Origin: an uncultured Eubacteriales bacterium
GTDB taxonomy: Bacteria > Acidobacteriota > Aminicenantia > Aminicenantales > Aminicenantaceae
NCBI GenBank assembly: GCA_964435925.1
Contig: CAYTBG010000002.1
Location: 1,833 to 65,832, forward strand
Direction of reading: 5' to 3'
Length of the DNA: 64,000 bases
This document shows positions 1-40,114 of the stretch, piece by piece. Every line of letters starts with the position of its first letter. The first letter of the stretch is position 1. The notes beneath the pieces were generated by a model. That model did not search any database and was not told the DNA's origin. It saw nothing but the letters and a program-made list of their open reading frames with translations. A program made the translations under genes and the position numbers.

Positions 1-832
1 CGAGCATACGATCTTGCTCTATGATAAACAGGACCCACGGCAGAGCCAGTTCTCATATATGAAGGGTGAAGTCACAGACAGGGCTAAACTGAGCGAGGCT
101 TTTCGAGATGCAGATGTAGTGATACATCTGGCAGCTCTGCGGTCCCGTTACAACCATCTGCCGATGAAGGTGATGGAAACAAACATCTTAGGAACTTTCA
201 GTGTGCTCGAGGCAGCACGGAGCCAAGGAGTGGAAAAGTTGTTATTCTCCAGCAGCGACGCGGTTCTTGGAATAGCACAGAGTGTGAATGAGTTGGCTCC
301 CGAGTACGTACCGATAGACGAGAAACATCCCTTAAAGCCACAGGATCCTTACGGAATCAGCAAGATGCTAGGAGAGGAGATGTGCTGCTGCTATGCGGAA
401 GGATATGATATTGACATCATTGCCCTGCGGTTTTCGAACATTTTCTGTCCTGGGGACGAGCAAAAATATTTGACCGACGCAAAAGATCCATCAGCGAGGC
501 GTAAGTCCCTGTGGGCCTGGGTTCACGTGGAAGATGCAGTTTACGCTATTGTGTGCGCTCTTATGTCCGACCTGAAAGGGTATGATGTATTCCATATAGT
601 GGCTGAAGACGTATGTCTTTCGAATCCGAATATCCAGAATCTGATGGCTACTTACTTTCCTAAAACTCCAATTAGAAGACCTCTTTCCGATAAAGAAAGT
701 CTTATTGATTGCAGGAAGGCCAAGCATAAACTGGGCTTCCAACTGCGCAGTCGATTCGCCGAAGTGCTGACCATGGAAGATTCAGAGCCTCCTAGCAAGA
801 ATCATCGGGCGATTAAGGCCATGAAATCATAA
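1..832 (+). CDS. NAD-dependent epimerase/dehydratase (extended SDR), 5'-truncated by window edge; copy 1
   Basis: Frame continues from nt 2 with no stop (EHTILLYDKQ...). YxxxK catalytic motif present (PYGISK). Rossmann N-terminus lies outside the window; the paralog at 17144 shows VTGGSGKLAG upstream of the same region. Confidence 0.7.
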   Translation, partial: EHTILLYDKQDPRQSQFSYMKGEVTDRAKLSEAFRDADVVIHLAALRSRYNHLPMKVMETNILGTFSVLEAARSQGVEKLLFSSSDAVLGIAQSVNELAPEYVPIDEKHPLKPQDPYGISKMLGEEMCCCYAEGYDIDIIALRFSNIFCPGDEQKYLTDAKDPSARRKSLWAWVHVEDAVYAIVCALMSDLKGYDVFHIVAEDVCLSNPNIQNLMATYFPKTPIRRPLSDKESLIDCRKAKHKLGFQLRSRFAEVLTMEDSEPPSKNHRAIKAMKS

Positions 833-848
833 AGGTAACTAGATAATT

Positions 849-1820
849 ATGAAGATTGCGATAGTCTACCATCCGGCGCGAATGCGTGCGACCGAAGATA
901 AAATCCAAGGGTCACGCCGCAAACTCCTGTACCCCACTCTTACCCGCGTGCGCAAGGCATTCGAGCGTGCTCATAACAAGGTTGTGACTGTTGATGGACG
1001 AGGCAACCTGTTTGCGAAGATCAGGAGAGCCAAGCCAGATATAGTATTCAACTGGTACTCAATACCTGGCAGAGTCCAGTCATACGTACCTGCGATCTTG
1101 GAAAAGATGGGAATGCCTTACACTGGTTGCAGTGCTTTGTGCCATGCTCTGGCAATGCATAAGGGGCTGGCGGGTAAAGTCCTTCGATATGACAAGTTGC
1201 CGGTGCCGCAATTCGCCTTGGTCAATCGAAAACAACGGGAGCCATCTCGGCAGGTAGAATTTCCAATCCTGGTAAAGCCCTGCTCTTTAGGGGCGAGCGA
1301 AGGAGTATCAGAAGGGTCTTTTGTCGAGTCGGCCGAAGAACTGCCTGCAGCAATAGATGCTGTTCTTGCAGTAGACAAGGAAGCAGTCATAACAAAGTAC
1401 ATTCCTGGCCGCGAGATAACCGTCGGCGTCATCGGCAACAAAAAATTACAAATCCTGCCAATCCTAGAGAAACATTTCGAGACTAAGCGAGGAGCGCCTC
1501 GAATCTTTACAGAAAAGATGAAGAAGAAATCTACCCACTGGCAATATAACGTAACGGTACCTGAAATGAAAGCGGATGAGGAGACAGCTGTGAAGAAGGC
1601 AGCGACAAGGGCCTTTCGTTCGATTGGCTGTACTGACTATGCACGAGTGGACATCCGCCTGGATAAACAAGGGATTCCCTGGATTCTCGAGGTAAATACA
1701 CTCCCGGGGATTTATCCGAAATTCAGCCCAATGGCCAAGATGGCCAGTGAAATAGGCAAGCCAGCTGAGTATCTGGCCACGCGGATCCTAGAAGAAGCCG
1801 AAGAGAGGCACGGTCTATAA
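849..1820 (+). CDS. D-Ala-D-Ala ligase-family ATP-grasp enzyme; copy 1
   Basis: ATG 8 nt after the epimerase stop. Ddl-like motifs MPYTGCSALCHALAMHKG, FPILVKPCSLGASEGVS, GREITVGVIGN and ARVDIRLD...ILEVNTLPGI. N-terminal domain is atypical for Ddl (no GGxSxE). Confidence 0.7.
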   Translation: MKIAIVYHPARMRATEDKIQGSRRKLLYPTLTRVRKAFERAHNKVVTVDGRGNLFAKIRRAKPDIVFNWYSIPGRVQSYVPAILEKMGMPYTGCSALCHALAMHKGLAGKVLRYDKLPVPQFALVNRKQREPSRQVEFPILVKPCSLGASEGVSEGSFVESAEELPAAIDAVLAVDKEAVITKYIPGREITVGVIGNKKLQILPILEKHFETKRGAPRIFTEKMKKKSTHWQYNVTVPEMKADEETAVKKAATRAFRSIGCTDYARVDIRLDKQGIPWILEVNTLPGIYPKFSPMAKMASEIGKPAEYLATRILEEAEERHGL

Positions 1821-7620: not shown

Positions 7621-8082
7621 ATGTTTACTTTTAAGAAAATTCTTTGGCCAACGGATTTTAGTGAGCCATCCTTTGAGGCGCTTAAAACAGCGAAAGAATT
7701 AGCCTCGCATTTCTCTTCCGAGCTATATCTTGTTCATGTTATCAGGCCAATGCCCCCTATTGTAGAAATTCCACGAGATCGGCCAAGCTTCAATGTTTCG
7801 TTGTATAGGAAAGAGCTCCGATCTTCCGCAGAAAAGTCACTCCAGGAAGTGATTAATAAAAAGGTTGGAAAAAGATTAAAAGTGCATGCTTTTGTTGCCA
7901 ACGGAGATGCAGCTGTTGAAATCAATCGCATTGCCAAAAGGGAACATATTGAACTTATTGTTATTGCAACTCAAGGTACCACTGGCAGGCGGAGTTTCTT
8001 TTTCGGGTCGGTTGCAGAGAAGGTGGTACGGATTGCCTCCACTCCTGTACTTACTATTAGATCTCCTCATAAAGAGGAATAA
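7621..8082 (+). CDS. universal stress protein (UspA family); copy 1
   Basis: 153 aa. ILWPTDFSE...LYLVHV...IVIATQGTTGRR...GSVAEKVVR, a typical USP ATP-binding pattern. Confidence 0.8.
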   Translation: MFTFKKILWPTDFSEPSFEALKTAKELASHFSSELYLVHVIRPMPPIVEIPRDRPSFNVSLYRKELRSSAEKSLQEVINKKVGKRLKVHAFVANGDAAVEINRIAKREHIELIVIATQGTTGRRSFFFGSVAEKVVRIASTPVLTIRSPHKEE

Positions 8083-13704: not shown

Positions 13705-15282
13705 ATGACCTTCCTCGATTGGATCATTATTATCCTGTATGCAGGCGGCCTCATCGTCCTGGGATGGTGGCTGGGACTCAAGCAGAAAACATCAGAAGAT
13801 TATTACCTGGCGGGAAGAAAGTTACCCTGGCTTCCCATAGGATTTTCCACTATGGCCACCCAACTGGGGGCCATTTCTTTTATCTCTGCTCCGGCTTTCG
13901 TTGCTCTTAGGGAAGGCGGCGGCATGATATGGCTGGGATATGAGCTTGCTCTTCCCCTTGCCATGATTGTCCTTATGGCTTTTCTTTTCCCTGTATTTCA
14001 TTCGCTTCGAATCATAAGCGTCTACGAGTTTTTAGAAAGGCGCTATGATGAGAAAACAAGGGTTGTGATGAGCCTTGTCTTCCAAGTAAGCCGGGGTTTA
14101 GCCACAGGAGTTACCATCTACGCTGCTGCTATTGTTCTCTCAGTGACCCTCCAAATTCCTCTCTCGATAACTATTCTCCTTATCGGCGCGGTGGCCGTTG
14201 TCTATGAGTTTTTCGGAGGAATCCATGTGGATATTGTCTCAGACACAATCCAAATGATTGTTATCTTCCTGGGAATAATCATAACCGGGTTGGTCGGCCT
14301 TCATCTTATCGGAGGATGGAGTTCGATTTCAGAGCTAATAGACCCTGCACGACTTGTCGCAGTGGATTTTTCTGCTCATGGACTTGGCGATAGCCAAGAT
14401 TTCGGGTTCTGGCCATTATTTCTTGGAGGCTTTTTTCTTTATGCTTCTTACTATGGCTGCGATCAAAGTCAGGTCCAGAGGGAACTCTCTGCCAGAAACC
14501 TTAAAGAATGTAAATTGAGCCTTCTTTTCAACGGTTTTTTCCGCTTCCCCATAGTCCTCGCCTACTGTGCTTTGGGACTCATCTTAGGAGCATATGTTGT
14601 CCAACATCCTGAATTCCTTGGGAATCTTCCTCAGGGAAGACCTGATTACCTCCTCCCCGCTTTTATCCTGGCAAAAATGCCTCCAGGAGTTGTAGGGTTG
14701 ATTTTTATTGCTATCATGGCTGCAGCTATGTCTTCCCTCGACTCTTCCATAAACTCTCTCTCTGCTGCCACTGTGGAAGACATCTATAAAAAGATCAGGA
14801 AAAGAAAGATAGAGCCAGGGCAAGAGATGAGATTATCCAAGATGTTTACGCTTTTTTGGGGAGTTGTCTGCATCGGATTTGCCTTTTTTGTTGGTGATAT
14901 TTCTCCTACTATCATAGAATCAATAAACAAAATCGGGTCTGCCTTTTACGGCCCTGTTTTTGCCGTCTTTTTGGCGGGAATTATCTCCTCAAAAGCCAAA
15001 CCTCTTCCCGCCATTGCTGGTCTTGTGAGCGGAGTAACTGGAAACCTCTTCCTCTGGCTTTTTGTGCCTTCAATCTCCTGGTTATGGTGGAATGCGATTG
15101 GATTTGCGCTCACGACTGCAGTCATTTTTTTGGGGAGCTTACTTTTCCAGTCAGCTTTCAAGAGCTCCTTCGAAATAAAAATCAGCCCTGAGGAAAGAGC
15201 CTGGAAAATAAGCTATGGATTATTGATCGTTTATGTTGCGGGGCTAATTCTCTTTTTAATTTTTTTCCCCAAGCTGTTTTAA
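13705..15282 (+). CDS. sodium:solute symporter family (SSF) transporter
   Basis: 525 aa. Multi-TM with the SSF pattern (GR.LPW...GFSTMAT.L.A.SF.S.PA). Candidate solute or proline-type importer. Confidence 0.75.
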   Translation: MTFLDWIIIILYAGGLIVLGWWLGLKQKTSEDYYLAGRKLPWLPIGFSTMATQLGAISFISAPAFVALREGGGMIWLGYELALPLAMIVLMAFLFPVFHSLRIISVYEFLERRYDEKTRVVMSLVFQVSRGLATGVTIYAAAIVLSVTLQIPLSITILLIGAVAVVYEFFGGIHVDIVSDTIQMIVIFLGIIITGLVGLHLIGGWSSISELIDPARLVAVDFSAHGLGDSQDFGFWPLFLGGFFLYASYYGCDQSQVQRELSARNLKECKLSLLFNGFFRFPIVLAYCALGLILGAYVVQHPEFLGNLPQGRPDYLLPAFILAKMPPGVVGLIFIAIMAAAMSSLDSSINSLSAATVEDIYKKIRKRKIEPGQEMRLSKMFTLFWGVVCIGFAFFVGDISPTIIESINKIGSAFYGPVFAVFLAGIISSKAKPLPAIAGLVSGVTGNLFLWLFVPSISWLWWNAIGFALTTAVIFLGSLLFQSAFKSSFEIKISPEERAWKISYGLLIVYVAGLILFLIFFPKLF

Positions 15283-15819
15283 TGAAATAAGCTCGACCGG
15301 GCAGGCTGGCCTGTTCAACCAGACTAGAATGCGATTTAGGTGGCTAGATTATGAATTGGCAAATCCGTTATGATTATGATTATTTTGGAGATGAATTTGA
15401 TGGAACTTTTATTAGAAAAACAAAAAGTCAATGTCAGATTTTGCCAGCTGAGTGAATTTAAAGTTTCTCTTCCCCCGAGAAAACTGTGTCGCATATTTGC
15501 TATTGTGGATTTGAGTTGATAAATGTGACTTAAAACTTGCAAACATTTGGGAATTTTTGGTATTATTAAACTAAAGATGTATAAAAATTTTTTAAGAGAT
15601 TCCCGCCTTTTTTAAATAACTAACATCCCTGTCTGGTTTCTCATTTGAGAATTGTGCATCATCTTGTCTCAATTATTCTGATGTGATTCCGAAGCCAAGG
15701 GATTTTAGTCGTAGGAATAACAAAAGGGGATGGCGGAACATTAACGGAACGCAAGATAAGAAATTTTTTGCTTAGGTTTAAAAGGAATATTGAAAAAAGA
15801 TTGAAAGGAGGCGATAAAT

Positions 15820-16035
15820 TTGGCTTTTGTGATTGTTGAAAAAAATGAATCTATAATAAATGCTTTAAGAAGATTCAGAGGAAAAGTCCAACGAGAAGCC
15901 ATAATGAAAGATTACAAGAAGAGCACTGTGTATCTAAAACCCAGCGATAGAAGGAGACAGAAAGAAGCACGAGCACGCAAGCGTATCATAAGATATCTCA
16001 AGAGAAAGCAGGAAAGGGAAAATTGGCGGCCTTAA
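15820..16035 (+). CDS. rpsU: 30S ribosomal protein S21
   Basis: 71 aa. ALRRFRGKV...YLKPSDRRRQKEARARKR pattern. Start appears to be TTG. Confidence 0.7.
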   Translation: MAFVIVEKNESIINALRRFRGKVQREAIMKDYKKSTVYLKPSDRRRQKEARARKRIIRYLKRKQERENWRP

Positions 16036-16291
16036 GGCAGTCTAGGTATTTTTCAAGGCCATTTCACTCGATTGCAGCCCGTAACAATTCTAATAGAAGA
16101 TGGACCGGGGCATTGCAACCGCTTTCGATCTCACCTAATGTTAATATTATGTCAACAAGTTGATAATTGATAAGCTAAGACGGCGGTAAAAAAAGAGCGC
16201 TTATTGAGTTGTCCACCCAATGCTTCCTTATGTTCTACTGGATTTCCGGCATTCTCCCCCAGCTCATCACCATAATTAGAAAGAAGTCTCA

Positions 16292-16585
16292 ATGAATATA
16301 ATAAAGAACATACACAAGAAAGTCAGAATCATTGATGTTATTGATTCCATAATGAAGGCCCTAGAGCAGTTCGATGGATTTGATGCAACAGTAACGATGG
16401 AGTTGTTCAAAGAGAATCAAAAGATGGATGATAAGGAGCGGACTATCACAGGACTAGTGACTTTAATCGTCGGCAACTTGGGAGAAAATGCGGATTTGAG
16501 CGAGCAAGAAGTCGACTCCGTCATCCGCTTTGTGCTGAAAATCGGCCGTGAAGTGAGAAAAAGGGCAAAAAATAGGATAATGTAA
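16292..16585 (+). CDS. hypothetical protein (97 aa)
   Basis: ORF. Followed directly by the conserved leader element. Confidence 0.4.
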   Translation: MNIIKNIHKKVRIIDVIDSIMKALEQFDGFDATVTMELFKENQKMDDKERTITGLVTLIVGNLGENADLSEQEVDSVIRFVLKIGREVRKRAKNRIM

Positions 16586-16610
16586 GGAAAGCGACAGAAA
16601 AAAAGTGGAG

Positions 16611-16820
16611 ATTATCCTTTCAATCCTTATATCATAATTTCAGTACAATTCAGCTGAATTTGACCCAGAAATCGCATTTTATTTTAAAATTTGCTTTTCC
16701 ACTCATAATATGTAATAAATATAAGTAATGAGAATTAAATTCTTCTAATTCAGCACAAAAACCCCTGTTTCTGTTGAGCTTTTTTCGTGGTGTTGTATTT
16801 TTTTGTTAAGGAGCCCAATT
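16611..16820 (+). promoter_or_regulatory. conserved ~215-bp non-coding leader element, copy B
   Basis: Collinear with 7312..7530. Ends at an AAGGAG RBS before ATG 16821. Confidence 0.4.
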
Positions 16821-17096
16821 ATGGATAAAAAAATAATTTATCAGGAAAAGATTAAAGCTCAATTAGAAAAAGTGAGCCCCAAAATTTATAAATTAAAGGC
16901 CAAAGCCGAGAAGGTAAATGTAGTGGATGGAATTGATTATTACAAGCAGATTGAAAAATTAAAAGCAACGCGGGATTTGTTAAAATTGGAACTCCAGGAA
17001 CTTAAAGAGATTGAAGAGGAGCCAGATGGGGATCTCGAAAAAAGAATACAGAATTCCATGAATGATTTAGAAGAATCTTTAGATCTTGATATCTAA
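16821..17096 (+). CDS. hypothetical coiled-coil protein
   Basis: ATG at 16821 with RBS aaggagcccaattATG. The ORF-track start at 16803 lies inside the conserved leader. Heptad-like KL/EL repeats. Confidence 0.5.
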   Translation: MDKKIIYQEKIKAQLEKVSPKIYKLKAKAEKVNVVDGIDYYKQIEKLKATRDLLKLELQELKEIEEEPDGDLEKRIQNSMNDLEESLDLDI

Positions 17097-17143
17097 AGGT
17101 TCGATAAATAGAATATTAACCTCTCTTTTGGCTGTAAGCATAA

Positions 17144-18049
17144 GTGAAAAAGATAAAACTGGTTGTAACGGGCGGAAGCGGAAAATTGGCCGGATACCTC
17201 ACACCCGTGCTTGCACGCGAGCACGAGATCTTGCTCTATGATAAACAGCGACCATAGCAGAGCCAGTTCCCATATATGAAGGGTGATATCACAGATAGTG
17301 CTAAACTGAGCAAGGCTTTTCAAGGTGCAGACGGGGTGGTACATCTGGCAGCTCTGCGGTCCCGTTGCAACCATCTGCCGATGAAGGTGATGGCAACAAA
17401 CATTTTAGGAACTTTCAGTGTGCTCGAGGCAGCACGGAGCGAAGGAGTGAAAAAGTTGTTATTCTCCAGCAGCGACGCGGTTCTTGGAATAGCACAGAGT
17501 ATGACTGAGTTTGCTCCCGAATATATACCGATAGACGAGAAACATCCCTTAATGCCACAGAATCCTTACGGAATCAGCAAGATGCACGGAGAGGAGATTT
17601 GCCGCTGCTTTACGGAAAGATATGATATAGATATCATTGCCCTGCGGTTTTCGAACATTTTCTGTCCAGGTGATGAGAAAAAGTATTTGACTGATGCAAA
17701 AGATCCATCAGCAAGGCGTAAGTCCCTATGGGCCTGGGTGCACGTAGATGATGCAGTTTGCGCCATTGTATGTGCTCTTGCGTCCGACCTGAAAGGGTAT
17801 GATGTATTCCATATCGCGGCTGAAGATGTTTGTCTTTCGAATCCGGATATCCCGAATCTGTTGGCTACTTTTTTTCCTAAAACGGAAATCAGAAGACCTC
17901 TTTCTGATAAAGAAAGTCTTATTGATTGTAGCAAGGCAAAACATAAACTGGGCTTCCAGCTGCGCAGAAGATTCGCCGATGTGGAAGGCATGGAAGGTTC
18001 AGAACCTGCTAATAAAAATCATCGGGCGATTAAAGCCATGAAATCATAA
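17144..18049 (+). pseudogene. NAD-dependent epimerase/dehydratase copy 2, disrupted by an in-frame TAG at 17255..17257
   Basis: GTG 17144 to VTGGSGKLAGYL Rossmann motif, then ...LLYDKQRP-TAG. Copy 1 has CGG at that position. The remaining ORF (17276..18049) lacks the NAD-binding N-terminus. Confidence 0.55.
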
Positions 18050-19145
18050 AGGTAACAAGCAAATTATGAAGATTGCGATAGTATACCAGCCGACGAGAAT
18101 GCGTGCAACCGAAGATAAAATCCATGGATCATGCCGCAAACTCCTATACCCCACTCTTACCCGTGTGCGCAAGGCATTCGAACGTGCTCCTCACAAGGTT
18201 GTGACTATTGATGGACTCGGCAACCTATTTGCGAAGATCAGGAGAGCCAAGCCAGATATAGTGTTCAACTGGTACTCAATGCCTGGCAGAGTCCAGTTAT
18301 ACGTACCAGCGCTCCTGGAAAAAATAGGAATGCCTTACACTGGTTGCAGTGCTCTGTGCCATGCTGTGGCAATGCATAAGGGGCTGGCGGGTAAAGTCCT
18401 TCGATATGACAAATTGCCGGTGCCGCAGTTCGCCTTGGTCAATCGAAAACAACGGGAGCCATCTCGTCAGGTAGAATTTCCAATCCTAGTGAAGCCCTGT
18501 TCTTTAGGGGCGAGCGAAGGAGTATCAGAAGAGTCTTTCGTCGAGTCAGCCGAAGATCTGCCAGCAGCAATAGATGCTGTTCTTGCAGTAGACAAGGAAG
18601 CAGTCATAACAAAGTACATTCCTGGACGCGAGATAACCGTCGGCATCATAGGAAACAAAAAATTGCAAATCCTGCCAATCCTAGAGAAGCGTTTCGAGGC
18701 TAAGCGAGGAGCACCTCGAATCTTTACAGAAAAGATGAAGAAGAAATCTACCCACTGGCACTATAACGTAACAGTGCCTGAAATGAAATCGAATGAGGAG
18801 ACAGCTGTGAAGAAGGCAGCGACAAGGGCCTATCGTTCGATTGGGTGTACTGACTATGCGCGAGTGGACATCCGCCTGGATAAACAAGGGATTCCCTGGA
18901 TTCTCGAGGTAAATACACTCCCAGGGATTTATCCGAAATTTAGCCCAATGGCCAAAATGGCCAGTGAAATAGGCAAGCCAGCCGAGTATCTGGCTATGCG
19001 GATCCTAGAAGAAGCAATGGAGAGAAATGGTTTATAAGAAGTGGTCTCTGCGAGGGATGTGCTAGCTTAGCAGGCGGTGCTTCCCGTGTGATTTTGCACG
19101 TGGGAGCCCAGTCCCCTTGATGATCAAAATGTAGTAAATATATCA
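17208..19145 (+). repeat. segmental duplication unit A2
   Basis: See unit A1. Confidence 0.8.
18066..19037 (+). CDS. D-Ala-D-Ala ligase-family ATP-grasp enzyme; copy 2
   Basis: Same length and motifs as 849..1820. Protein differs at only scattered positions. Confidence 0.7.
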   Translation: MKIAIVYQPTRMRATEDKIHGSCRKLLYPTLTRVRKAFERAPHKVVTIDGLGNLFAKIRRAKPDIVFNWYSMPGRVQLYVPALLEKIGMPYTGCSALCHAVAMHKGLAGKVLRYDKLPVPQFALVNRKQREPSRQVEFPILVKPCSLGASEGVSEESFVESAEDLPAAIDAVLAVDKEAVITKYIPGREITVGIIGNKKLQILPILEKRFEAKRGAPRIFTEKMKKKSTHWHYNVTVPEMKSNEETAVKKAATRAYRSIGCTDYARVDIRLDKQGIPWILEVNTLPGIYPKFSPMAKMASEIGKPAEYLAMRILEEAMERNGL

Positions 19146-19161
19146 CTTCGTCCCTTTTCAT

Positions 19162-20883
19162 TTGGAGGCAACATATATGTGTGGAATTGCTGGAATAATA
19201 AGTAAAAACAACCAAAAAAGAATAGGTAACCTTCTCAAAAGGATGCTCCAAACAATGCAACATCGCGGTCCTGACGGGGCAGGTTTTACGATTGGAGGAG
19301 TTGTTGAACGGAAGAGAAAGTTAAACGACCTGAATTTTGATGGGAAAGAAGGGAACATTGGTTTGGGTCACGTTAGATTAGCTATCACCGGAGGCATGGA
19401 CGGGATGCAGCCGTTCCAGGAAAATAACGGTCGCCTTAGCCTTTTACATAATGGCGAAATATATAATTACCGAAAACTACGTTCAGAACTAAATGGCAAT
19501 TATGAATTTGAAACAGATACTGACAGCGAAGTCATCTTAAAGCTTCTGGAAAAACACTATGAGGGTGATTTATCTACTGCAGTAAAACAGATATTACCTA
19601 AACTTGATGGTGTCTATGCTCTGGCAGTTACCGACAATAAACAGACCGTAATAGCTCGTGACAAAATCGGTGTGCGTCAACTTTATTTTTATGCTGATGA
19701 TGAGTATTTTGCCTTCGCCTCCGAAAAGAAGCCTCTAACATCGATTTGCGGTAATTTCGGAAAAATTCGTCGTCTCCTTCCAGGACACATGATTGCTGTA
19801 GAAACAAACAATGTCCGAGAATTTATATTTTGGACGCCTGAATCAATTTGGTCAATGCGGTACATTAATGATAGGAAAGAAGCACTTAAAGCTTACAATC
19901 AAGCTATAATGGACTCCATTATAAAAAGAACTACTGGCCAAAAACGAGTAGGAGTAATTTTTTCAGGAGGAATTGATAGTTTTCTAATAGCTCATATGCT
20001 TAAGAGTCTAAATATTTCTTTTACCTGTTATACAGCCGGTAGAAATGGAGCATCGGACGTTGAGTGGGCGTGTAATTTAGCAAATAAATACAATCTCTCC
20101 ATAAAAATAAAACAACTTACGTTAGACGAAATAGAAAACCTTATCCCACAAATAATAATGGATATCGAAGACTATAGTTTGAATCAAGTTGAGGTAGCAA
20201 TTCCGATATACGCATCCGTCCGGATGGCTCAGGAGAATGGTGAGAAGGTAATTTTAACTGGTCAGGGAGCTGATGAACTCTTTGGTGGTTATCCCTGGTA
20301 TTCAAAAATTGTTGATCAAGAAGGCTATAAAAGTTTCGAACGATACTCTTGGAACGACACCTTTCTCTTGTATAAGGAATGTTTAGAACGGGAGGACAAA
20401 ATAGCGATGGCACACAATATTGAACTAAGGGTTCCTTATCTGGATCCCGCAGTAATAAAAGCAGCCTTCCAAATTTCCCCCAAATTAAAAATTTTGTGTG
20501 ATAATGATCAACTGGGGAAGAGAATTCATCGTGAATTTTGTGTATCAGTCGGAATACCTGAAAAAATAGCATTTCGTAAAAAAGAAGCGGCTCAGCACGG
20601 CGCTAATATTCATAATGTATTTGAAATATTGGCCAGTAGAACTGGAGTTAATAAAGCCCATTTGGAAAAGGCTGGATACGATCCTAATGAATCTATTATG
20701 GAAAAGCTCGGTAGTTCATCTCGTTACGGATTCCGTTATGGTGATCACCATCTGTGGGAGCCCATGCCTCACATGCAATATTATCTCGACTCCCATGCTA
20801 GTCGTATTAATTTCCTTTCACCAAAATCAAAAAGCCATTGGGAAGAAATAACCTGCAGGCTAGAGGCTAAAAGTATCATTTAA
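19162..20883 (+). CDS. asparagine synthetase-like glutamine-hydrolysing amidotransferase (AsnB/AsnO family)
   Basis: N-terminal nucleophile MCGIAG (class II GATase). PP-loop SGGIDS in VGVIFSGGIDSFLIAH. 573 aa. Confidence 0.8.
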   Translation: MEATYMCGIAGIISKNNQKRIGNLLKRMLQTMQHRGPDGAGFTIGGVVERKRKLNDLNFDGKEGNIGLGHVRLAITGGMDGMQPFQENNGRLSLLHNGEIYNYRKLRSELNGNYEFETDTDSEVILKLLEKHYEGDLSTAVKQILPKLDGVYALAVTDNKQTVIARDKIGVRQLYFYADDEYFAFASEKKPLTSICGNFGKIRRLLPGHMIAVETNNVREFIFWTPESIWSMRYINDRKEALKAYNQAIMDSIIKRTTGQKRVGVIFSGGIDSFLIAHMLKSLNISFTCYTAGRNGASDVEWACNLANKYNLSIKIKQLTLDEIENLIPQIIMDIEDYSLNQVEVAIPIYASVRMAQENGEKVILTGQGADELFGGYPWYSKIVDQEGYKSFERYSWNDTFLLYKECLEREDKIAMAHNIELRVPYLDPAVIKAAFQISPKLKILCDNDQLGKRIHREFCVSVGIPEKIAFRKKEAAQHGANIHNVFEILASRTGVNKAHLEKAGYDPNESIMEKLGSSSRYGFRYGDHHLWEPMPHMQYYLDSHASRINFLSPKSKSHWEEITCRLEAKSII

Positions 20884-20897
20884 AGGAGGCGTATACG

Positions 20898-22097
20898 ATG
20901 AAAATAGAAATCCCTAGAGAAATAGATCGATTTGGAGCGATTCGCTTTTATGGTTTACAAAAGGTATTCGAACTGGACTCAGGCCTAAAAGAAGATAATC
21001 CCCTAAATCAGATCGCAACTATCCAGCAAATCCCTTACGAGGCGTTTTATGAGATTCAAAAAGAGATGGCTATTATAGTCCCAATACGTAATGAGCGCCT
21101 TAGGCTGATTGAGGGTGTTTTATGTGGTATTCCTCATAAATGCCTTATTATTATGGTATCAAATAGCCCCCGAGGACCCATTGACCGCTTTAAGATAGAA
21201 CAAGAAGCGCTGGAAAATTTCTGCATTTTTGTCAACAAAAAAGCTATTATAACCCACCAAAAGGATCCACACTTAGCCAAGGCCTTTGAAAAAGCCAATT
21301 ATACAAATATCTTAAACAAAAATGGAGAGGTCCGAGACGGTAAGGCAGAAGGCATGATTATTGGAACTATACTTGCCTGGCTTGCCGAAAAAAAGTACGT
21401 TGGATTTGTTGATGCTGACAATTACTTCCCCGGTGCGGTGGAAGAGTATATTCGCGAATATGCAGCTGCCTTTTCTATGAATAACCCCCCTTATTCGATG
21501 GTACGAATTGCCTGGCAAAGCAAGCCCAAGATTGTTGAAAAAAAGCTTTTTTTTCGGAAATGGGGCAGAACTTCAGAGAATACCAATCGTCTATTAAATA
21601 AAATGCTAAGTCATTATTACGGATTTGAAAGTGAGTTAATTAGAACCGGAAATGCTGGAGAACACGCAATGACAATAGAATTGGCAAAACTTTTGGACTA
21701 TTCAGCCGGTTTCTCAGTGGAGCCTTACCACATCATCAATCTTGTTGAGAAATTTGGCGGCATTAAAGAAAGCCCATTCCCAGAAGTGATGAAAAAGGGT
21801 GTCGAAGTTTTCCAGATAGAGTCCCGAAATCCGCACCTTCATGAGGCGGGCGAAACAGAACACGTTGATAAGATGAGCTATGTAGCAATGCAGGTGATAT
21901 ATCACTCGTCTATCTGTCCCGATAAATTCAAAAGGGAAGTCTATAATGATATGATCAGGCGAAAATTTTTATCGAAAAGCAACAAACCACCTCGTCCGGT
22001 TAAATTTCCTGCATTGAACACAATTGATAAAAATAGTTTCTTTGAAAATATTAAATCAGCACCTTATGCCAAAGTTATTAAGGAAGTAAAATTCTGA
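20898..22097 (+). CDS. mpgS: mannosyl-3-phosphoglycerate synthase (GT55)
   Basis: Motifs recalled from Pyrococcus MpgS: GAIRFYGLQKV, IVPIRNERL.L.EGVL.GIPHKC.IIMVSNS, HQKDP.LAKAF, GK.EGM, GFVDADNYFPGAVEEY..EYAA.F, MVRI.W..KPK, F.KWGR.SE.TN, GNAGEHAMT, EPY.II.L, FQIESRNPHLHE. Confidence 0.65.
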   Translation: MKIEIPREIDRFGAIRFYGLQKVFELDSGLKEDNPLNQIATIQQIPYEAFYEIQKEMAIIVPIRNERLRLIEGVLCGIPHKCLIIMVSNSPRGPIDRFKIEQEALENFCIFVNKKAIITHQKDPHLAKAFEKANYTNILNKNGEVRDGKAEGMIIGTILAWLAEKKYVGFVDADNYFPGAVEEYIREYAAAFSMNNPPYSMVRIAWQSKPKIVEKKLFFRKWGRTSENTNRLLNKMLSHYYGFESELIRTGNAGEHAMTIELAKLLDYSAGFSVEPYHIINLVEKFGGIKESPFPEVMKKGVEVFQIESRNPHLHEAGETEHVDKMSYVAMQVIYHSSICPDKFKREVYNDMIRRKFLSKSNKPPRPVKFPALNTIDKNSFFENIKSAPYAKVIKEVKF

Positions 22098-22183
22098 AGG
22101 AGATATGATTTTTTACTAAAGAAAGAGGAAGCTTATGCCATCATTTTTCTTGATTAATAAACAAGATCTTCAAATAAAAACGT

Positions 22184-22369
22184 ATGCATAATATCTACCA
22201 AAAGACAGGAGTCGTGATAGCGGTAGCATGGGCAGTGTGGGGATTCTCGCTAATGAAACGAAATTGGAAAGATAATAAACTCAGAGTCATTGAAATAGAA
22301 CTATATATAATATACACGCTAGCCATAATATTTGCTGGAATCGTATGCTCGGTATTCGGAGTTATATAA
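22184..22369 (+). CDS. possible small membrane protein (2 TM)
   Basis: Hydrophobic ORF only. Confidence 0.25.
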   Translation: MHNIYQKTGVVIAVAWAVWGFSLMKRNWKDNKLRVIEIELYIIYTLAIIFAGIVCSVFGVI

Positions 22370-22502
22370 ATGAGTAAAACGACGGTGTGGCTGAATAATC
22401 CTACTCATGGGATAAGGCACAAACCTCTAGGTGGACGGCCAAGTGACATAGACCCATGAATGTTTGGTCGAGTACCCCATAAACCTTAAAGAAAGAACAA
22501 AA

Positions 22503-22961
22503 ATGATTATGTTTAAGAAAATTCTTTGGCCAACCGATTTTAGTGAGCCATCCTATGAGGCGTTTAAAACAGCGAAAGAATTAGCCTTGTATTTCTCTTC
22601 TGAGCTATATCTCGTTCATGTTATCACACCCATGCCCCCTCTTGTGGAAATTCCGCGAGATCGGCCAAGCTTTAATGTTTCGTTGTACAGGAAAGAGCTC
22701 CAATCTTCCGCAGAAAAATCGCTTCAGGGAGTGATTGATAAAAAGGTTGGAAAAAGATTAAAAGTTCATGCTTTTGTTGCCAATGGAGATGCAGCTGTTG
22801 AAATCAATCGCATTGCCAAAAGGGAACGTGTTGAGCTTGTTGTTATTGCAACTCAAGGTACTGGCCGGCGACATTTCTTTTTAGGATCGGTTGCTGAGAA
22901 CGTGGTGCGGTTTTCCTCGACTCCCGTACTTACTATTAGAGCTACTCATAAAGAGGAATAA
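22503..22961 (+). CDS. universal stress protein (UspA family); copy 2
   Basis: The ATG giving MIMFKKILWPTDFSE aligns with copy 1's start and shares the upstream aagaacaaaaATG. The ORF-track start at 22464 is probably too early. Confidence 0.8.
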   Translation: MIMFKKILWPTDFSEPSYEAFKTAKELALYFSSELYLVHVITPMPPLVEIPRDRPSFNVSLYRKELQSSAEKSLQGVIDKKVGKRLKVHAFVANGDAAVEINRIAKRERVELVVIATQGTGRRHFFLGSVAENVVRFSSTPVLTIRATHKEE

Positions 22962-23132
22962 TTAGTTTAGAGATTGATTCATGAATTATGAGGGAGGATC
23001 AGCATAATTTTAGATAATGCATTTTACATGGGAGTCGGGTGCATCTTAGGCTGCGATATTTTGCTTTCGGCTCCCTAAAGAACGAGGAAGAATTTATTAA
23101 TGGAAATTGAAATATAAGGAGATTTTAAAAGG

Positions 23133-23567
23133 ATGAAACGGAACTTTACACCAACACAGGTGACAGAGGGTAAGATAGATTATAGCCTTAAAGAGTTTTT
23201 AAGAGACTTATGGGAAGAAGTAAAATCTAATATACCCAAAGGGGTCCTTAATCATCTACCCGAAGGGAAAGAGAAAGACAGAAAGTATAACAAAATAATA
23301 AGAGAAGTCTTCAATGTTGTATATGAGGTCTGTTACTTGGCTGTGGTTGAGAAATCCTACTTGAAATTAGTGCTTAAACAATCTAACGAAGTGGAAAGAA
23401 AGCTTATAAAAAAGACAATTAAGGAGAATAAGAGCAATATTGATATGCTGTATGCTATCTTGAGGATGCATATAGCAAGAGGACTCAAGGAGGGATTGAC
23501 GAAGAAACAAGCTGTAAAAGCAACAGTTGAATATAGTAAGGAGTTAATTTCTAAATGGAAAAGATAG
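23133..23567 (+). CDS. hypothetical protein (144 aa); copy 2 of 8249..8683
   Basis: Same length; high identity to copy 1. Confidence 0.6.
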   Translation: MKRNFTPTQVTEGKIDYSLKEFLRDLWEEVKSNIPKGVLNHLPEGKEKDRKYNKIIREVFNVVYEVCYLAVVEKSYLKLVLKQSNEVERKLIKKTIKENKSNIDMLYAILRMHIARGLKEGLTKKQAVKATVEYSKELISKWKR

Positions 23568-23635
23568 AAACATATGTGTAAAAAACGAAACGTGACAGTT
23601 TTAGGGAAGAAGATAATAAAAGATAAAAGTATGTC

Positions 23636-25243
23636 ATGAATAAAGAAATGGACAGAATTCATCAGCTCATTTCTAAAGGAAAAAAGCAAGGGTATATTCT
23701 TTTTGAAGAAATAGACAAAACATTTAAGGATAACGTAGACGATGGAAAAGACTTTGATGAATTTCTCAACTCTATTGATGGCTATGGGATCAAAATCTAC
23801 TATAAACGAAATATGTTTAGTCCAAAAAGAAAAAAAAGTAAGTTCGTTAGACTTGAAAGTCTAGAGCGAACAACAGATCCAGTAAAACTCTATCTAAGAG
23901 AAATGGGCACTATCTCGCTCCTTACTCGCCAGGAAGAAATAGCTATAGCAAAGCAAATCGAAAAAAGCAAGATGAATATTATCAGAGCTCTTTTTGACAC
24001 CCGGCTTATCCTCGATGAAGTTTTCTCTCTGGAAGAGAAGATAAAGGAAGGTTTTGAAGTCATCCATGGAATGTTCGATTTCAGCGAAGATGATATTACA
24101 GAGAGAAAGCTTGAAGAAAAAAAGGAACACATTCTGGCCAAAATCAGGAAGATCAGAGATCTGAGTTCTCGGTTAGAGAGTATCCCTTTAACAAAGAAAT
24201 ATTCTTTTACCCGCGGGCGGCTTATGGTCAAAATGAACCGCCTCATCAGGGAACTCATTATTCGACGAGCCCAATGGGAAAAAATCATTGACAATCTGCA
24301 GGAAAAATTAAAAGTCATCAACGAATTAGAAGATATCAAGAAAGATCTAAATTTAGCGCTAAAACAGGCCCGAGGCAAAAAGAAAAAGACTGAGCTGAAA
24401 CGCAAAGTACAAGAAACCAACAAGCTCTTGAGGAAACACCAGAAAGAAATCGGCCTTAATTCTCAAGGTTTAAGAAAAATTCTGAGAGTTATCGCTACGG
24501 CAAAAAAGATCAGCGATCAAGCGAAAAAAGAGCTCATAGCATCCAACCTAAGACTTGTAATTTCCATAGCTAAGAAATACAGCCACCGCGGAGTCCCGTT
24601 TTCTGATTTAATCCAGGAAGGAAACATAGGTCTGATGAGAGCTGTGGATAAATTTGAATATCGACAAGGGTATAAATTTTCAACTTATGCCACCTGGTGG
24701 ATTAGACAAGCTATAATGCGATCCATAGCTGACAAATCACGGATAATAAGAATCCCTGTGCATATGGTAGAAACTATAAACAAACTGACAAGGATATCGA
24801 GAACTCTTGTCCAGGAAAAAGGTAGAGAACCAACTTGCAAAGAGATATCCAGTAAAATGGGAATACCCGTCAGCAAAGTAAGAAAGATCATAAAATTCGC
24901 CCAGGAACCCATCTCTCTTGAAACCCCCATCGGAGAAGAAGAAGACAGTCGACTGTGTGATTTCATCAAAGATGAGGATATCCCTTCGCCTGCCGATACA
25001 GTCATTCGTATCAATATGATAGAGCAAATTGAAGATGTGCTAAAAACTATCCCAGAGAAAGAGGCAAAAGTTCTAAAGATGCGATTTGGATTAGGTGATG
25101 GCAATGAGCATACCCTGGAACAAATCGGGGATCAATTCAAAGTTACTCGTGAGAGAATCAGGCAGATCGAAACAAAAGCCTTAAGAAAATTAAAGCATCC
25201 TAACCGAAGCGAAAAATTAGAGTCATTTGCAGATTACTATTGA
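23636..25243 (+). CDS. rpoD: RNA polymerase primary sigma factor (sigma-70)
   Basis: Region 2 [37 protein letters not shown], region 4 [19 protein letters not shown], and a long non-conserved 1.1/1.2 region. Confidence 0.9.
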
Positions 25244-29428: not shown

Positions 29429-30718
29429 TCAAACTTTTCCCTCTTGAACCACAATGTTCCCATCCCTGGCTACAATTTTCCCGTTCTTTATGACATGTTT
29501 CAAGGGATTAATGCCCAGGTGATAGACAAGGGTGGGATAATTGGGAACGTCCCATAAAACAACATCCATTTTTTTCCCGACTTCAAGACTTCCCACCTCT
29601 TCATGCTTTGCCAGAGCATAGACAGCATTTGCCGTCGCGGCATTGATGGCTTCTTCTATGCTCATCTTCAGGGTGAGAACAGCAAGCTGGAGGACAAAAA
29701 GCATGGATTCTGTCATCGAGGTTCCGGGATTAAAATCCGTGGCCAAAGCGACGATGGCTCCTTCTTCGATGAGTTTTCGCGCGGGCGCTTTTTTCTCATG
29801 CATGAGGAAGAAAGAGACTGCGGGGAGCAGGGTAGCTACTGTTTGGCTTTTTGCGAGTTCCTGGATTCCTTCCTCAGTAATATTGGTGAGATGGTCAGCA
29901 GATGTGGCTTCCTCCTCTGCGGCAAGCTTCGCTCCTCCCAAAGGAGAGAATTCATCGGCGTGGATTTTGATTTTAAATCCTGCTGCTTTGGCAGCCCTGA
30001 CTAATTTTCTTGTCTCATCAAGGGAGAAAACTCCCTCCTCACAGAAGACATCAAAGAACTCGGCCAAATTTTTTTCTTTTACTTCGGGTAGGATTTTATG
30101 AATGAGAAGCTCGATATAATCGTTTTTTCGAGACCTGTATTCTTCTGGGATTTCATGGGCGCCCATAAAGGTGGGGACGATATCGATGGGATGGAGCTTT
30201 CGAAGCTCTTCGAGCGTTTCAAGCTGTTTTATCTCGTCTTTAAGGTTCAAGCCGTAGCCGCTCTTGGCCTCGGTAGTCGTAGTTCCCAAAAGAAGCATAT
30301 TATCGAGGCGATTAAGAGAGAGGGAGAGGAGATCCTTCTTGGAAGCTTGACGGGTTGCTTTTACTGTTGTCTGAATTCCCAAGCCTTTTTTTGCCAACTC
30401 CTGGTATGAGTAGCCTTTAAGACGGAGAACAAATTCTTCCTCTCTTGTTCCAGCAAAAGGGAGGTGTGTATGAGAGTCAACAAAGCCCGGAAGTGCGACC
30501 AGACCGGTTCCATCGATATAAATGCCATCTTCTTCCAATCGAACTTCTTTTTTGAATTTTTTCTCCTCTCCCAAAAAAATAATCTTTCCTTTAAATGAAG
30601 CAATGCAGGCTTTCTCCAGAAGCCCGACATCTTGGAGGGCGCCTGCTCTCTTAGGTATCTGCCCCCTGCAGGTAAGAAGTTGCTCACAGTTTACAACTGC
30701 AAGGTCAGCTGATTTCAC
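29429..30718 (-). CDS. imidazolonepropionase-like amidohydrolase (HutI family)
   Basis: [19 protein letters not shown]...[21 protein letters not shown] matches the HutI pattern. Metal-ligand His/Asp positions present. No other hut genes nearby. Confidence 0.55.
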
Positions 30719-31913
30719 GAGGGATTTTCCTTATAGGGGTTTGTTTGTTTTTTCTGATGAAAGAGGGCGTTTCATAAGGTTCCCATTGCTTTTCCCAAGC
30801 GGGTCTGTTCCAGAGAACCTCGCTTCCCTTTGGCTCAAATAAATAAGGAGGTGTATCACTCTTAACCTTAGGAGAAGGAGCTTCTTGCGCAAGGGAAGAG
30901 ATGTCTGCTTGAGGTGCAATTTCCCTCCGCGGTGTAAGCCCAAAACCTGTGGCGATGACAGTAACTTTAGCCATTTCTTTCATGCTTTCGTCGATCACTG
31001 TGCCAAAAATGATATTGGCTTCTGGATGAGCCTGGCTGTGGATAAGCTGCGAGGCTGTAGAGACTTCGTGAAGAGTGAGATCTCTCCCGCCGGTTATATT
31101 GATCAGGACTCCTTGAGCTCCCTCGATCGAGGTATCAATTAGAAGAGGACTGGATATTGCCTTTTGGGCAGCATCCACAGCTCTGTTTTCGCCGGATGCT
31201 AATCCTGTCCCCATGAAGGCCATACCCATGCCTTTCATGATTGATTTGACGTCAGCAAAGTCCAGGTTGATCAGCCCTGGCTTGGTAATGAGGTCCGAAA
31301 TTCCCTGGGCTGCCTGCCGTAATATGTCGTCAGCCATTTTGAAGGCATCCTGGATAGAAGTATCCAGCGTGACTGTCTCGAGCAGTCTTTCATTTGGTAT
31401 GGAAATAACCGTGTCAACAGAAGTTTTTAATTCTGCCAGGCCTTCTTCTGCTTGCTTAGATCTGATTTTTCCTTCAAACTGAAAGGGCAGGGTTACTATG
31501 GCAATCGCCAGAATGTCCATTTCTGAGGCGAGATTTGCCAGGACCGGAGTCGCTCCTGTTCCTGTGCCTCCGCCTAAGCCAGCGGTCAGAAAGACCATGT
31601 CTGAATCTTCAAGGACACTGACTAATTTTTCCGTATCTTCCATGGCTGCTTGTTTTCCGATATCCGGTCTTCCGCCAGATCCCAGTCCTTTTGTAAGCTG
31701 CTCTCCAATCTGGACCTTAGTCCTTGCTTTGGTGCTGTTGAGAGCCTGAAGGTCTGTATTGACTGTGATAAATTTCACTCCTTCGATTCCTGCTTCAATC
31801 ATCCTGTTTATGGCATTTCCACCGCCTCCACCGATCCCAACAACTTTTATTTTGGCCCCATAACGTTCTTCTACCAAGCGAAATTTTAATTTACTTTTTA
31901 TTTCTTCACTCAT
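30705..31913 (-). CDS. ftsZ: cell division protein FtsZ
   Basis: [13 protein letters not shown] tubulin signature. Long C-terminal linker. Confidence 0.9.
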
Positions 31914-31922
31914 TCTTACCTC

Positions 31923-33146: not shown

Positions 33147-34015
33147 CAGTTTGCCTCCCTCTTAGGCTTGGGAATGCGTGCTCTGTATGGATTTTTCTTT
33201 GGTTTGATGATGAACCGATCTGGAAAGCGGAGGTCAACATATTCGAGGTATCCAAACTTTCCTAATCTGGCGCTGTATTTTTGGAACGCTTTGAGCTTCT
33301 GGGAAAACTGATCATTGCCAAGAATGAACTTTGTCTTTTTCTTTTTAAGTTGAACAGTAATATTTTCGTATTCACTAAGGTCCAGAACCTCAAGCTGCGC
33401 TTTCTCCGAAGGAGATAAGCTGCGAAGACATTCCCAGGCTAATTTTAGTTTTTCCTTATAGTCTTTTTGAAAATTATTCGAATCGACGAGAAGGGGAAGA
33501 TCTAATTTTTCTGTTGATTCGATTCTCTCGAGATGAATACCTTCTTCGTCAATAAGATAAAGATTTTCTCTTTTCAACAGAGCGAGGGGCGTTCTATCTT
33601 TTATTTCGATCTTTAGAGTAGAGGGTAAAATTTTCCTTATGCGGACCTCTTTAATCCATCTGTGAGCTGCCAACGTCTCCTGGAGGTGCCCGATATCAAA
33701 AAGAAGAATATTTCCCACGTTTATATTCTCTAAATTTTGTTGGATTTCCTGTTTTACGTCAGGATTACGACACACGATTATCATATCTCTTACTTCTAGA
33801 TTATCCCAAGAAATCAGAAAAAGATAAGACTTCTGGACGGAATAGAAAATTCCGCCTATAAGAAGGAGATAGAAAAAGATGTGCCAGAATCTGAGCTTCG
33901 CTTTTTTCTGGACTTTTTTTGTCTTTGTTTTCCCTTTTCCTCGCTGGAACTGCATATGCTGGGAAAAGAAGGGTCCTGCTCTTGTCTTCAAAGGCGGATT
34001 AAGGTAAGAAGCCAC
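33146..34015 (-). CDS. ftsQ: cell division protein FtsQ (POTRA domain)
   Basis: N-terminal TM segment, POTRA region. Lies between murC and ftsA. Confidence 0.65.
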   Translation of the reverse strand: MASYLNPPLKTRAGPFFSQHMQFQRGKGKTKTKKVQKKAKLRFWHIFFYLLLIGGIFYSVQKSYLFLISWDNLEVRDMIIVCRNPDVKQEIQQNLENINVGNILLFDIGHLQETLAAHRWIKEVRIRKILPSTLKIEIKDRTPLALLKRENLYLIDEEGIHLERIESTEKLDLPLLVDSNNFQKDYKEKLKLAWECLRSLSPSEKAQLEVLDLSEYENITVQLKKKKTKFILGNDQFSQKLKAFQKYSARLGKFGYLEYVDLRFPDRFIIKPKKNPYRARIPKPKREAN

Positions 34016-34017
34016 TA

Positions 34018-35406: not shown

Positions 35407-35422
35407 TGGTTCACTCCTTTAG

Positions 35423-36502: not shown

Positions 36503-36504
36503 TT

Positions 36505-37650: not shown

Positions 37651-37655
37651 AATTC

Positions 37656-39023: not shown

Positions 39024-39024
39024 T

Positions 39025-40113: not shown

Positions 40114-40114
40114 G

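Follow-up and report, generated by a model that had tools for sequence, protein, structure and literature searches.

What does a run of four adjacent genes encode when one pairing among them recalls the making of a peptide amide and another points to the osmolyte mannosylglycerate (MG)? The question is raised by positions 17144-22097 of a stretch of DNA from an uncultured Eubacteriales bacterium (Aminicenantales in the GTDB lineage; assembly GCA_964435925.1, contig CAYTBG010000002.1, positions 1,833 to 65,832); the window, as used here, is that whole stretch of 64,000 nucleotides. Profile searches with Pfam and NCBIfam showed that four plus-strand open reading frames (ORFs) in this region carry the domains of a short-chain dehydrogenase/reductase (SDR), a Ddl-family ATP-grasp ligase, an asparagine synthetase (AsnB)-type amidotransferase and a mannosyl-3-phosphoglycerate synthase (MpgS). 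An earlier sequence-only reading had made the same domain calls (PF01370, PF07478, PF13537 with PF00733, and PF09488), all of which were borne out, and had proposed that the four genes form one pathway to a new compatible solute. The comparative evidence points elsewhere, and the reading that we hold to be rather probable is that two independent two-gene modules have become neighbours only here, and that the AsnB-like protein would act beside MpgS as a glutamine-dependent mannosylglycerate amidotransferase. The four genes are as follows.

17144..18049, plus strand: extended SDR copy B (NAD-dependent epimerase/dehydratase family), interrupted by a TAG codon; PF01370, E 4e-34 with the stop masked
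18066..19037, plus strand: Ddl-family ATP-grasp ligase copy B, 323 aa; PF07478 Dala_Dala_lig_C, E 1.6e-33
19177..20883, plus strand: AsnB-like protein of 568 aa, a class II glutamine amidotransferase whose adenylating domain has a PP-loop; PF13537, E 7.7e-31; PF00733, E 1.1e-43
20898..22097, plus strand: mannosyl-3-phosphoglycerate synthase MpgS (GT55), 399 aa; PF09488 Osmo_MPGsynth, E 2.8e-148; TIGR02460

The genes had been described as lying on one strand with tiny gaps. This holds for the strand and for the gaps within each pair, with 16 bp between SDR and ATP-grasp and 14 bp between AsnB and MpgS, but the gap between the pairs, from ATP-grasp to AsnB, is 139 bp. In addition, the SDR carries an in-frame TAG, and a second copy of the SDR and ATP-grasp pair (1-1820) had been missed. 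The start of the AsnB-like gene is most likely the ATG at 19177, which yields MCGIAG, so that the nucleophile Cys becomes residue 2, and has a GGAGG upstream at 19164; the TTG at 19162 is a less likely alternative.

Linkage of the AsnB-like gene to mpgS

The MpgS of the window is apparently an ordinary and active enzyme. It scores 491.5 bits against TIGR02460 (cut-off 351.2) over residues 4-385 of 399, matches the solved MpgS structures 2zu7 (E 1e-110) and 2wvk (E 5e-106) over their full length, and has a FVDADNY motif, the DXD element for metal and nucleotide-sugar binding, that aligns with both. Its gene neighbourhood was surveyed from two directions. Scanning the MpgS protein against one genome per species gave 66 loci, and a reverse set of 32 loci was fetched from metagenomes with the AsnB-like protein.

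The two closest homologues of the AsnB-like protein, at 90% and 72% identity, each have MpgS as the next gene downstream. Among the genome loci with an MpgS of at least 58% identity and a readable upstream region, an AsnB-like gene lies directly 5' of MpgS in 15 of 19, and most of these 15 have a sodium:solute symporter (SSF) gene immediately 3' of MpgS. Even distant AsnB-like proteins (35-49% identity) adjoin MpgS, in seven Dehalococcoidia metagenome-assembled genomes (MAGs) and one Thaumarchaeote. The reverse test gave the same arrangement: MpgS lies directly 3' of the AsnB-like gene in 10 of the 12 evaluable metagenome loci (at least 54% identity), and both exceptions stem from a single duplicated sequence (L082/L083), which has an N-terminal nucleophile (Ntn) hydrolase and a GH38 gene 4 kb away. 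At 43-49% identity, the AsnB-like genes of metagenome loci sit beside MpgS, the phosphatase MpgP, GH38 or ManC. In the duplicated sequence (L082/L083:4216-7719), the gene immediately before the AsnB-like one is rpoD, and MpgS is not found downstream of the AsnB-like gene.

The gap between the two genes is mostly -4 or 14 bp, and the two proteins co-vary: their pairwise identities correlate with r = 0.90 over 35 loci, a value reached in 0 of 2000 Mantel permutations. Adjacency was found in at least nine named phyla. The bacterial taxa are Thermodesulfobacteriota, Chloroflexota, Bacteroidota (including Ignavibacteria), Krumholzibacteriota, Latescibacterota, Acidobacteriota, Verrucomicrobiota and Fidelibacterota; the archaeal one is Thaumarchaeota. 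The call for neighbourhood conservation in relatives was thus answered in two ways, as the AsnB-MpgS pair is conserved in both surveys and its junction with the SDR and ATP-grasp genes is not. In the closest relative of the pair, L009 (90% and 89% identity), the 324 bp 5' of AsnB are unrelated to the window.

Some further features of these loci bear on the history of the module. A frame-broken SSF remnant directly follows MpgS in L009 (L009:3264-3648); no such remnant was found 3' of MpgS in the window, whose module is read as having lost its downstream SSF completely. In L010, a transposase-type helix-turn-helix gene lies 5' of AsnB, which hints that the AsnB-MpgS module is mobile; a search for MpgS on plasmids gave no match. 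Fusion of MpgS to MpgP, as in the MgsD type, was also considered and rejected: all 66 MpgS ORFs whose size could be read are unfused and about 360-480 aa long, save three fragments and one over-extended call.

The acceptor pocket of the AsnB-like protein

The AsnB-like protein was aligned with E. coli AsnB (1ct9) and human asparagine synthetase (ASNS; 6gq3), and residues are given here in E. coli numbering. It shares the two-domain architecture of both enzymes and retains the glutaminase residues (Cys2, R49, N74, E76 and D98) and those of the adenylating domain (the SGGIDS PP-loop, D351, R387, K429 and K449). Its chemistry is most likely theirs as well, namely adenylation of a carboxylate followed by attack of glutamine-derived ammonia. 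The PP-loop, D351, R387, K429 and K449 are conserved in all 44 distinct AsnB-like proteins linked to MG loci, and R49, N74, E76 and D98 in all of them but a Dehalococcoidia subgroup. Since glutaminase and adenylation sites are both intact, the window protein should turn a carboxylate into a primary amide. In the Dehalococcoidia subgroup (L046, L057, L059, L066 and L070; 35-37% identity), R49, N74, E76 and D98 are lost and most proteins have no N-terminal Cys, with Q348, D376 and T384 retained; the nucleophile of these proteins may be free ammonia or some other compound.

The difference from AsnB and ASNS lies where the amino acid substrate is held. In human ASNS, the protonated alpha-amino group of the substrate sits in a pocket made by Glu364, Asp367 and Asp400, and the variants E364Q and E364A are inactive (PMC6748925). 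The corresponding E. coli positions are 348, 351 and 384. In all 44 linked proteins, E348 is replaced by Gln, K376 by Asp, and D384 by Cys or Thr (Cys in the window protein), so that neither Glu348 nor Asp384, both expected of a canonical AsnB, is present here. With two of the three pocket acids neutral throughout the linked family, the site would suit a substrate that has no alpha-amino group, for example a hydroxy acid bearing a sugar. The C-terminal region also departs from the known enzymes, as it contains the motifs KEAAQHGxxxH and GSSxRYG and cannot be aligned with that of solved AsnB.

How far this signature reaches was seen in an index-free search of 1.84 billion representatives. Q348 and D376 occur together in numerous AsnB-like proteins further removed from the linked clade, where position 384 is mostly Asn, and Q348 had to be discarded as a unique marker of the MG clade. 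The linked clade is instead defined jointly by Q348, D376 and Thr or Cys at 384, by a length of about 550-575 aa, and by the conserved C-terminal motifs. As a sequence criterion, then, the Q348/D376 signature argues against a canonical AsnB and does not name the substrate.

Could the protein nonetheless be an ordinary glutamine-dependent asparagine synthetase that merely shares an operon with mpgS, for instance so that nitrogen and stress metabolism are regulated together? It does score above the cut-off of the broad asparagine synthase model TIGR01536 (330 versus 267), its glutaminase residues and PP-loop are intact, its homologues form a smooth gradient over many phyla, and the presence of Q348 in so many other AsnB-like proteins might mean that this residue is a tolerated variant in some lineages. 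It falls, however, below the AsnB equivalog model PRK09431 (282 versus 499), and the change at 348, found together with that at 384 in 44 of 44 linked proteins, is the one that kills the human enzyme as E364Q (PMC6748925). Against it also stand a conserved and translationally coupled linkage to MpgS in at least nine phyla, and an Ntn hydrolase and a MarR regulator that are confined to the MG loci containing AsnB. On balance, this alternative is improbable.

Partner genes and a possible route to mannosylglyceramide

All ORFs of the loci were clustered, and recurrent clusters were identified with Pfam and NCBIfam. The recurrent partners are MpgP, a GH38 glycosidase, a MarR regulator, a mannose-1-phosphate guanylyltransferase and an Ntn hydrolase of about 450 aa. 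The MpgP of related loci is genuine (TIGR02461, 270 versus a cut-off of 244). The GH38 protein has mannosylglycerate hydrolase PRK09819 as its best NCBIfam match (E 3.8e-78), with a score of 263 versus a cut-off of 1138. The Ntn hydrolase starts with MCD(I/V)LV, gives weak matches to the C69 and C45 families and adjoins GH38; it occurs in L020, L022, L023, L024, L012, L082 and L084 (for example at L023:4049-5401). The 66 MpgS loci divide into 23 with and 43 without an AsnB-like gene, and the partners are distributed between the two groups as follows.

SSF symporter: 14 of 23 loci with AsnB, 3 of 43 without
MarR: 10 of 23 with, 0 of 43 without
Ntn hydrolase: 7 of 23 with, 0 of 43 without
MpgP: 14 of 23 with, 24 of 43 without (about equal)
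GH38: 9 of 23 with, 13 of 43 without (about equal)

These loci share ancestry, and because they are not phylogenetically independent the Fisher P values of these enrichments are only indicative, which counts as one of several points against the preferred reading (the others are gathered below).

The relation to the known pathways is one of partial likeness. As in the MpgS/MpgP pathway of Pyrococcus horikoshii, Thermus thermophilus and Rhodothermus marinus, the window has a full-length GT55 MpgS and related loci have MpgP; in contrast to that pathway, an AsnB-like gene lies directly 5' of mpgS in the operon, SSF, MarR and Ntn hydrolase genes are enriched, and the window itself has no MpgP. Similarly, the GH38 of related loci recalls MG catabolism of the E. 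coli MngB type in its best match to PRK09819, but it scores far below the cut-off of that model, is paired with an Ntn hydrolase in AsnB loci, and is not in the window.

Three carboxylates are specific to an AsnB-MpgS locus: 3-phosphoglycerate, mannosyl-3-phosphoglycerate and mannosylglycerate. In the literature that could be searched, no enzyme was found assigned to the formation of mannosylglyceramide, the amide of mannosylglycerate, and no association of AsnB with mpgS. Because the locus offers such carboxylates, and because one of their amides is known and has no amidating enzyme assigned in that literature, the AsnB-like protein becomes a candidate mannosylglycerate amidotransferase. R. 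marinus favours the neutral mannosylglyceramide over the anionic mannosylglycerate as NaCl rises (PMC1224877). As a lead only, R. marinus DSM 4252 has two asparagine synthase genes, RMAR_RS11910 and RMAR_RS10310, one of which is missing from strain ISCaR-493 (PMC11730185). The suggestion of the sequence-only reading that the AsnB-like enzyme amidates mannosylglycerate therefore gains strong support from comparative genomics, namely from the adjacency to MpgS in at least nine phyla, the co-variation of the two proteins and the loss of the aspartate-binding acids.

By homology to characterised enzymes, MpgS would transfer mannose from GDP-mannose to 3-phosphoglycerate, giving mannosyl-3-phosphoglycerate, and a phosphatase presumably encoded beyond the 64-kb window would strip the phosphate. 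The AsnB-like protein would then adenylate the glycerate carboxylate with ATP, and ammonia channelled from its glutaminase domain would amidate that carboxylate to yield neutral mannosylglyceramide. In the fuller loci of other phyla, the SSF symporter could provide re-uptake, MpgP the dephosphorylation, MarR the regulation, and the MngB-like GH38 mannosidase together with the Ntn hydrolase, a possible amidase, the breakdown. It is possible that the Ntn hydrolase is a mannosylglyceramide amidase working in the reverse direction. That a locus of MarR, AsnB-like, MpgS, SSF and MpgP genes, close to those for the Ntn hydrolase and GH38, serves to make mannosylglyceramide, take it up again and degrade it is a tentative proposal, held with slightly less than even confidence. 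The SDR and ATP-grasp genes, duplicated and with the SDR interrupted, would stand outside the MG pathway.

The amidation could conceivably take place at another step of the MG locus. The AsnB-like protein might act on 3-phosphoglycerate, giving 3-phosphoglyceramide as the acceptor for MpgS, on mannosyl-3-phosphoglycerate or on free glycerate, and the product would be mannosylglyceramide or some other amide. The linkage and active-site data apply equally to such a step, AsnB precedes MpgS in gene order, and the window has no MpgP. On the other hand, MpgP is present in 14 of the 23 AsnB loci, and the standard two-step route is therefore normally complete; moreover, the MpgS of the window is an unremarkable close homologue of enzymes that use 3-phosphoglycerate. 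Action at another step is accordingly rated as unlikely, yet the most credible of the alternatives weighed here.

The window itself holds little of the wider locus. The earlier remark that no MpgP gene adjoins mpgS was confirmed and extended, as tblastn with all 38 MpgP proteins from related loci found none in the 64 kb; GH38, MarR and ManC were likewise not found in the window. Two window genes resemble partner genes:

13705..15282, plus strand: sodium:solute symporter (SSF); PF00474, TIGR00813
60185-61954, minus strand: C69 family peptidase, full length; PF03577, E 1.9e-59

The SSF is only 40-49% identical to the SSFs of the module, which are about 61% identical among themselves, and it is therefore probably a paralogue and not an orthologue of these. 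The C69 peptidase is only about 25% identical to the Ntn hydrolase of the loci, which makes a connection with the MG locus improbable.

The SDR and ATP-grasp pair and the meaning of the locus

What, then, is the first half of the cluster? A second copy of the pair lies at the left edge of the window.

1..832, plus strand: SDR copy A, with its 5' end beyond the window edge; the visible part is stop-free in translation and lies inside the duplicated block
849..1820, plus strand: copy A of the Ddl-family ATP-grasp ligase, with 323 aa and 92% identity to copy B
17218..19156: duplicated block that matches window 1-1940; in blastn, 1,940 bp align at 90.3% DNA identity with a single gap

The right end of the block falls about 8 bp 5' of the ribosome-binding site of AsnB. 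Copy A is followed by an iron-containing alcohol dehydrogenase gene (Fe-ADH) on the minus strand, TreT and OtsAB, an order that matches relative L007. In copy B, the SDR has both family motifs, TGGSGKLAG (GxxGxxG) and YGISK (YxxxK), but not an intact ORF: a TAG at 17255-17257, just after GxxGxxG, parts the Rossmann motif from the remaining protein, and the longest stop-free ORF begins at 17276. In relatives, the equivalent codon encodes Gln (CAG, CAA), Arg (AGA) or Pro (CCA), and in copy A it encodes Arg; on this comparison, the TAG is read either as a nonsense mutation of one base or as an error in sequencing. Pyrrolysine and readthrough were both rejected as explanations of the stop, as the codon is not conserved (Gln, Arg, Pro) and a single transition turns CAG into TAG. 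Comparison of the two copies gives a dN/dS of 0.17 for the ATP-grasp gene and of 0.32 for the SDR, with dS of 0.22-0.27. Both copies were thus maintained for some time, and the stop is probably recent.

The relatives of the pair comprise eight readable loci fetched with close ATP-grasp homologues, one Armatimonadota locus (L109) and a tenth place known as a gene listing. The SDR adjoins the ATP-grasp gene in all eight and in L109; in the eight, it is intact, 286-299 aa long and 16-86 bp 5' of its partner. Neither AsnB nor MpgS stands beside the pair in any of the eight or in L109, and in the gene listing of the tenth place neither follows the ATP-grasp gene. Conversely, the ATP-grasp gene is absent from all 66 MpgS loci and all 32 AsnB loci, and the sole SDR match among these 98 is a weak one (33%, L107). 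What follows the pair varies. In L003 and L004, it is TreT-OtsAB-FKBP-Usp, with TreT-OtsAB starting 28 bp on and, in L004, rpoD further along; in L007, it is Fe-ADH on the minus strand, then TreT and OtsAB; in L008, it is probably Fe-ADH on the minus strand, the downstream gene being clipped by the contig end; and in L005 and L006, it is amidohydrolase-ftsZ-ftsA-ftsQ, the ftsZ end of the division and cell wall (dcw) cluster. A GT4 glycosyltransferase gene and a GH130 gene (mannoside phosphorylase family) lie 5' of the pair in L003 and L004 (L003:6234-8331 and L004:2937-5034).

These neighbourhoods tell against the proposal that the four genes make one new solute, in which the Ddl-like and AsnB-like enzymes would act as Ngg and AsnO do for the osmolyte N-acetylglutaminylglutamine amide (NAGGN), while the SDR would provide or alter a substrate. 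The proposal draws on the adjacency of all four genes on one strand in the window, on purifying selection in ATP-grasp copy B and on the osmoadaptation genes TreT, OtsAB and Usp close by. It is contradicted by the neighbourhood data, in which no relative combines the two modules (0 of 8 pair loci and L109 with AsnB or MpgS, 0 of 98 loci with ATP-grasp), by the 139-bp gap that coincides with the end of the duplicated block, and by the nonsense codon in the SDR. The likeness to NAGGN synthesis (a GNAT/ATP-grasp Ngg, AsnO and a peptidase) consists of an ATP-grasp and an AsnB-like gene being neighbours in this one window, an adjacency conserved in no relative. The window has neither the GNAT domain, only ATP-grasp domains being found by Pfam in the 323-aa ligase, nor the third gene, that of the peptidase, and the AsnB-like protein scores 179.8 bits against the NAGGN amidotransferase model TIGR03104, far below its cut-off of 570.1. 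Both the NAGGN-like pairing and the single four-gene pathway consequently fell away, and we regard the latter as barely credible.

The ATP-grasp enzyme is in all likelihood something other than a cell-wall ligase. It has the Ddl-family fold (PF07478), and its best solved relatives are Ddl and VanA, but it scores below every NCBIfam Ddl cut-off (best 156.9 versus 243, PRK01372), and the Ddl N-terminal domain PF01820 was not detected in it by Pfam. All six ATP/Mg residues (K97, K144, R255, D257, E270 and N272) are retained. The D-Ala-binding triad Glu15/Ser150/Tyr216, numbered on what we take to be the E. coli DdlB sequence (its length and key positions were checked), is broken by the changes of S150 to Ala and Y216 to Lys; the counterpart of Glu15 is ambiguous, as the N-terminus aligns poorly, and a conserved ATED motif is a possible match. 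By these sequence marks, copy B is not a canonical D-Ala-D-Ala ligase. Its orthologues form a tight family of about 63 clusters at 67-90% identity, the complete ones almost all 312-323 aa long, below which identity falls sharply to 46% and 35%.

Nevertheless, might it be the divergent housekeeping D-Ala-D-Ala ligase of the lineage? The remaining neighbours in the window are relevant here.

3574-4788: TreT
5066-7282: OtsA-OtsB fusion
7621-8082 and 22464-22961: Usp, two genes
23636-25243: rpoD (RpoD-type sigma-70), just downstream of MpgS
30705-44714, minus strand: dcw cluster ftsI-murE-murF-mraY-murD-ftsW-murG-murC-ftsQ-ftsA-ftsZ

The dcw cluster, from ftsI to ftsZ, has murF and no ddl (ddl and murB are not present between murC and ftsQ), which means that a housekeeping ddl is either located elsewhere or has diverged greatly. 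The ATP-grasp protein is as long as a Ddl and retains the catalytic ATP/Mg residues, and the pair adjoins the ftsZ end of the dcw cluster in L005 and L006. Against a housekeeping role stand the scores below all Ddl cut-offs with PF01820 undetected, the lost D-Ala triad (S150 to Ala, Y216 to Lys), the constant coupling to an SDR, and the Armatimonadota operon, where the ATP-grasp gene accompanies genes for an opine-dehydrogenase-like protein and an ABC importer of the peptide type. A housekeeping Ddl is thus very unlikely. In that operon (L109:1-7990, MAG GCA_046760465.1), which is tightly packed, the pair is terminal; its ATP-grasp protein is 46% identical, and the accompanying genes encode an octopine-dehydrogenase-like protein and an Opp/Dpp-type importer. 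This context may point to an opine- or peptide-like substrate for the pair. The best solved relatives of the SDR are 4id9 and uronate dehydrogenases, which are small-molecule dehydrogenases and not nucleotide-sugar epimerases. Our working guess is that the pair ligates a small carboxylate to an amine in an ATP-dependent manner, with the SDR acting on one partner.

As for the other features of the window, the TreT, OtsAB fusion, SSF and duplicated Usp genes named by the sequence-only reading are all present as it stated, and BamD is encoded as well; together with the complete dcw cluster and the RpoD-type sigma factor, BamD marks the source as a bacterium. Scans of the window for tRNAs and Rfam families gave no matches. 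A promoter and terminator scan of 15200-23700 left the 139-bp gap between the modules empty; its top promoter-like site (10 of 12 positions) lies at 17086-17114, just 5' of the SDR, and the 27 promoter-like sites are not clearly above the 20 ± 4 of shuffled sequence, the three terminator-like sites being below the expected 7.3 ± 2.7.

Besides the shared ancestry of the loci, several observations weigh against two independent modules with a mannosylglycerate amidotransferase. With 330 versus 267, the AsnB-like protein clears the cut-off of TIGR01536, a generic model of asparagine synthases, and its Q348 and D376 recur in many more distant AsnB-like proteins. In the sources consulted, mannosylglyceramide is documented only for Rhodothermus marinus (PMC1224877). 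The window is without MpgP, GH38, MarR and an SSF of the module type, so that the pathway here needs genes outside the window. Finally, the purifying selection on ATP-grasp copy B (dN/dS 0.17) makes a local role of that gene possible.

The locus would be of interest on two counts. The conserved SDR and Ddl-family ATP-grasp genes make up an uncharacterised two-gene unit and a separate lead. As for the AsnB-MpgS module, the sequence evidence suggests a variant of the MG pathway with a specialised AsnB-family amidotransferase, and a defined AsnB-like family in mpgS operons, with an altered acceptor pocket, makes the orphan amidation step directly testable. If the assignment is true, the long-missing amidating enzyme of mannosylglyceramide would be in hand, and possibly its amidase as well; if confirmed, it would also open a production route to a neutral mannosylglycerate derivative. 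The known range of this neutral solute would then grow from one genus, Rhodothermus, to mostly uncultivated members of at least nine phyla, Thaumarchaeota among them.

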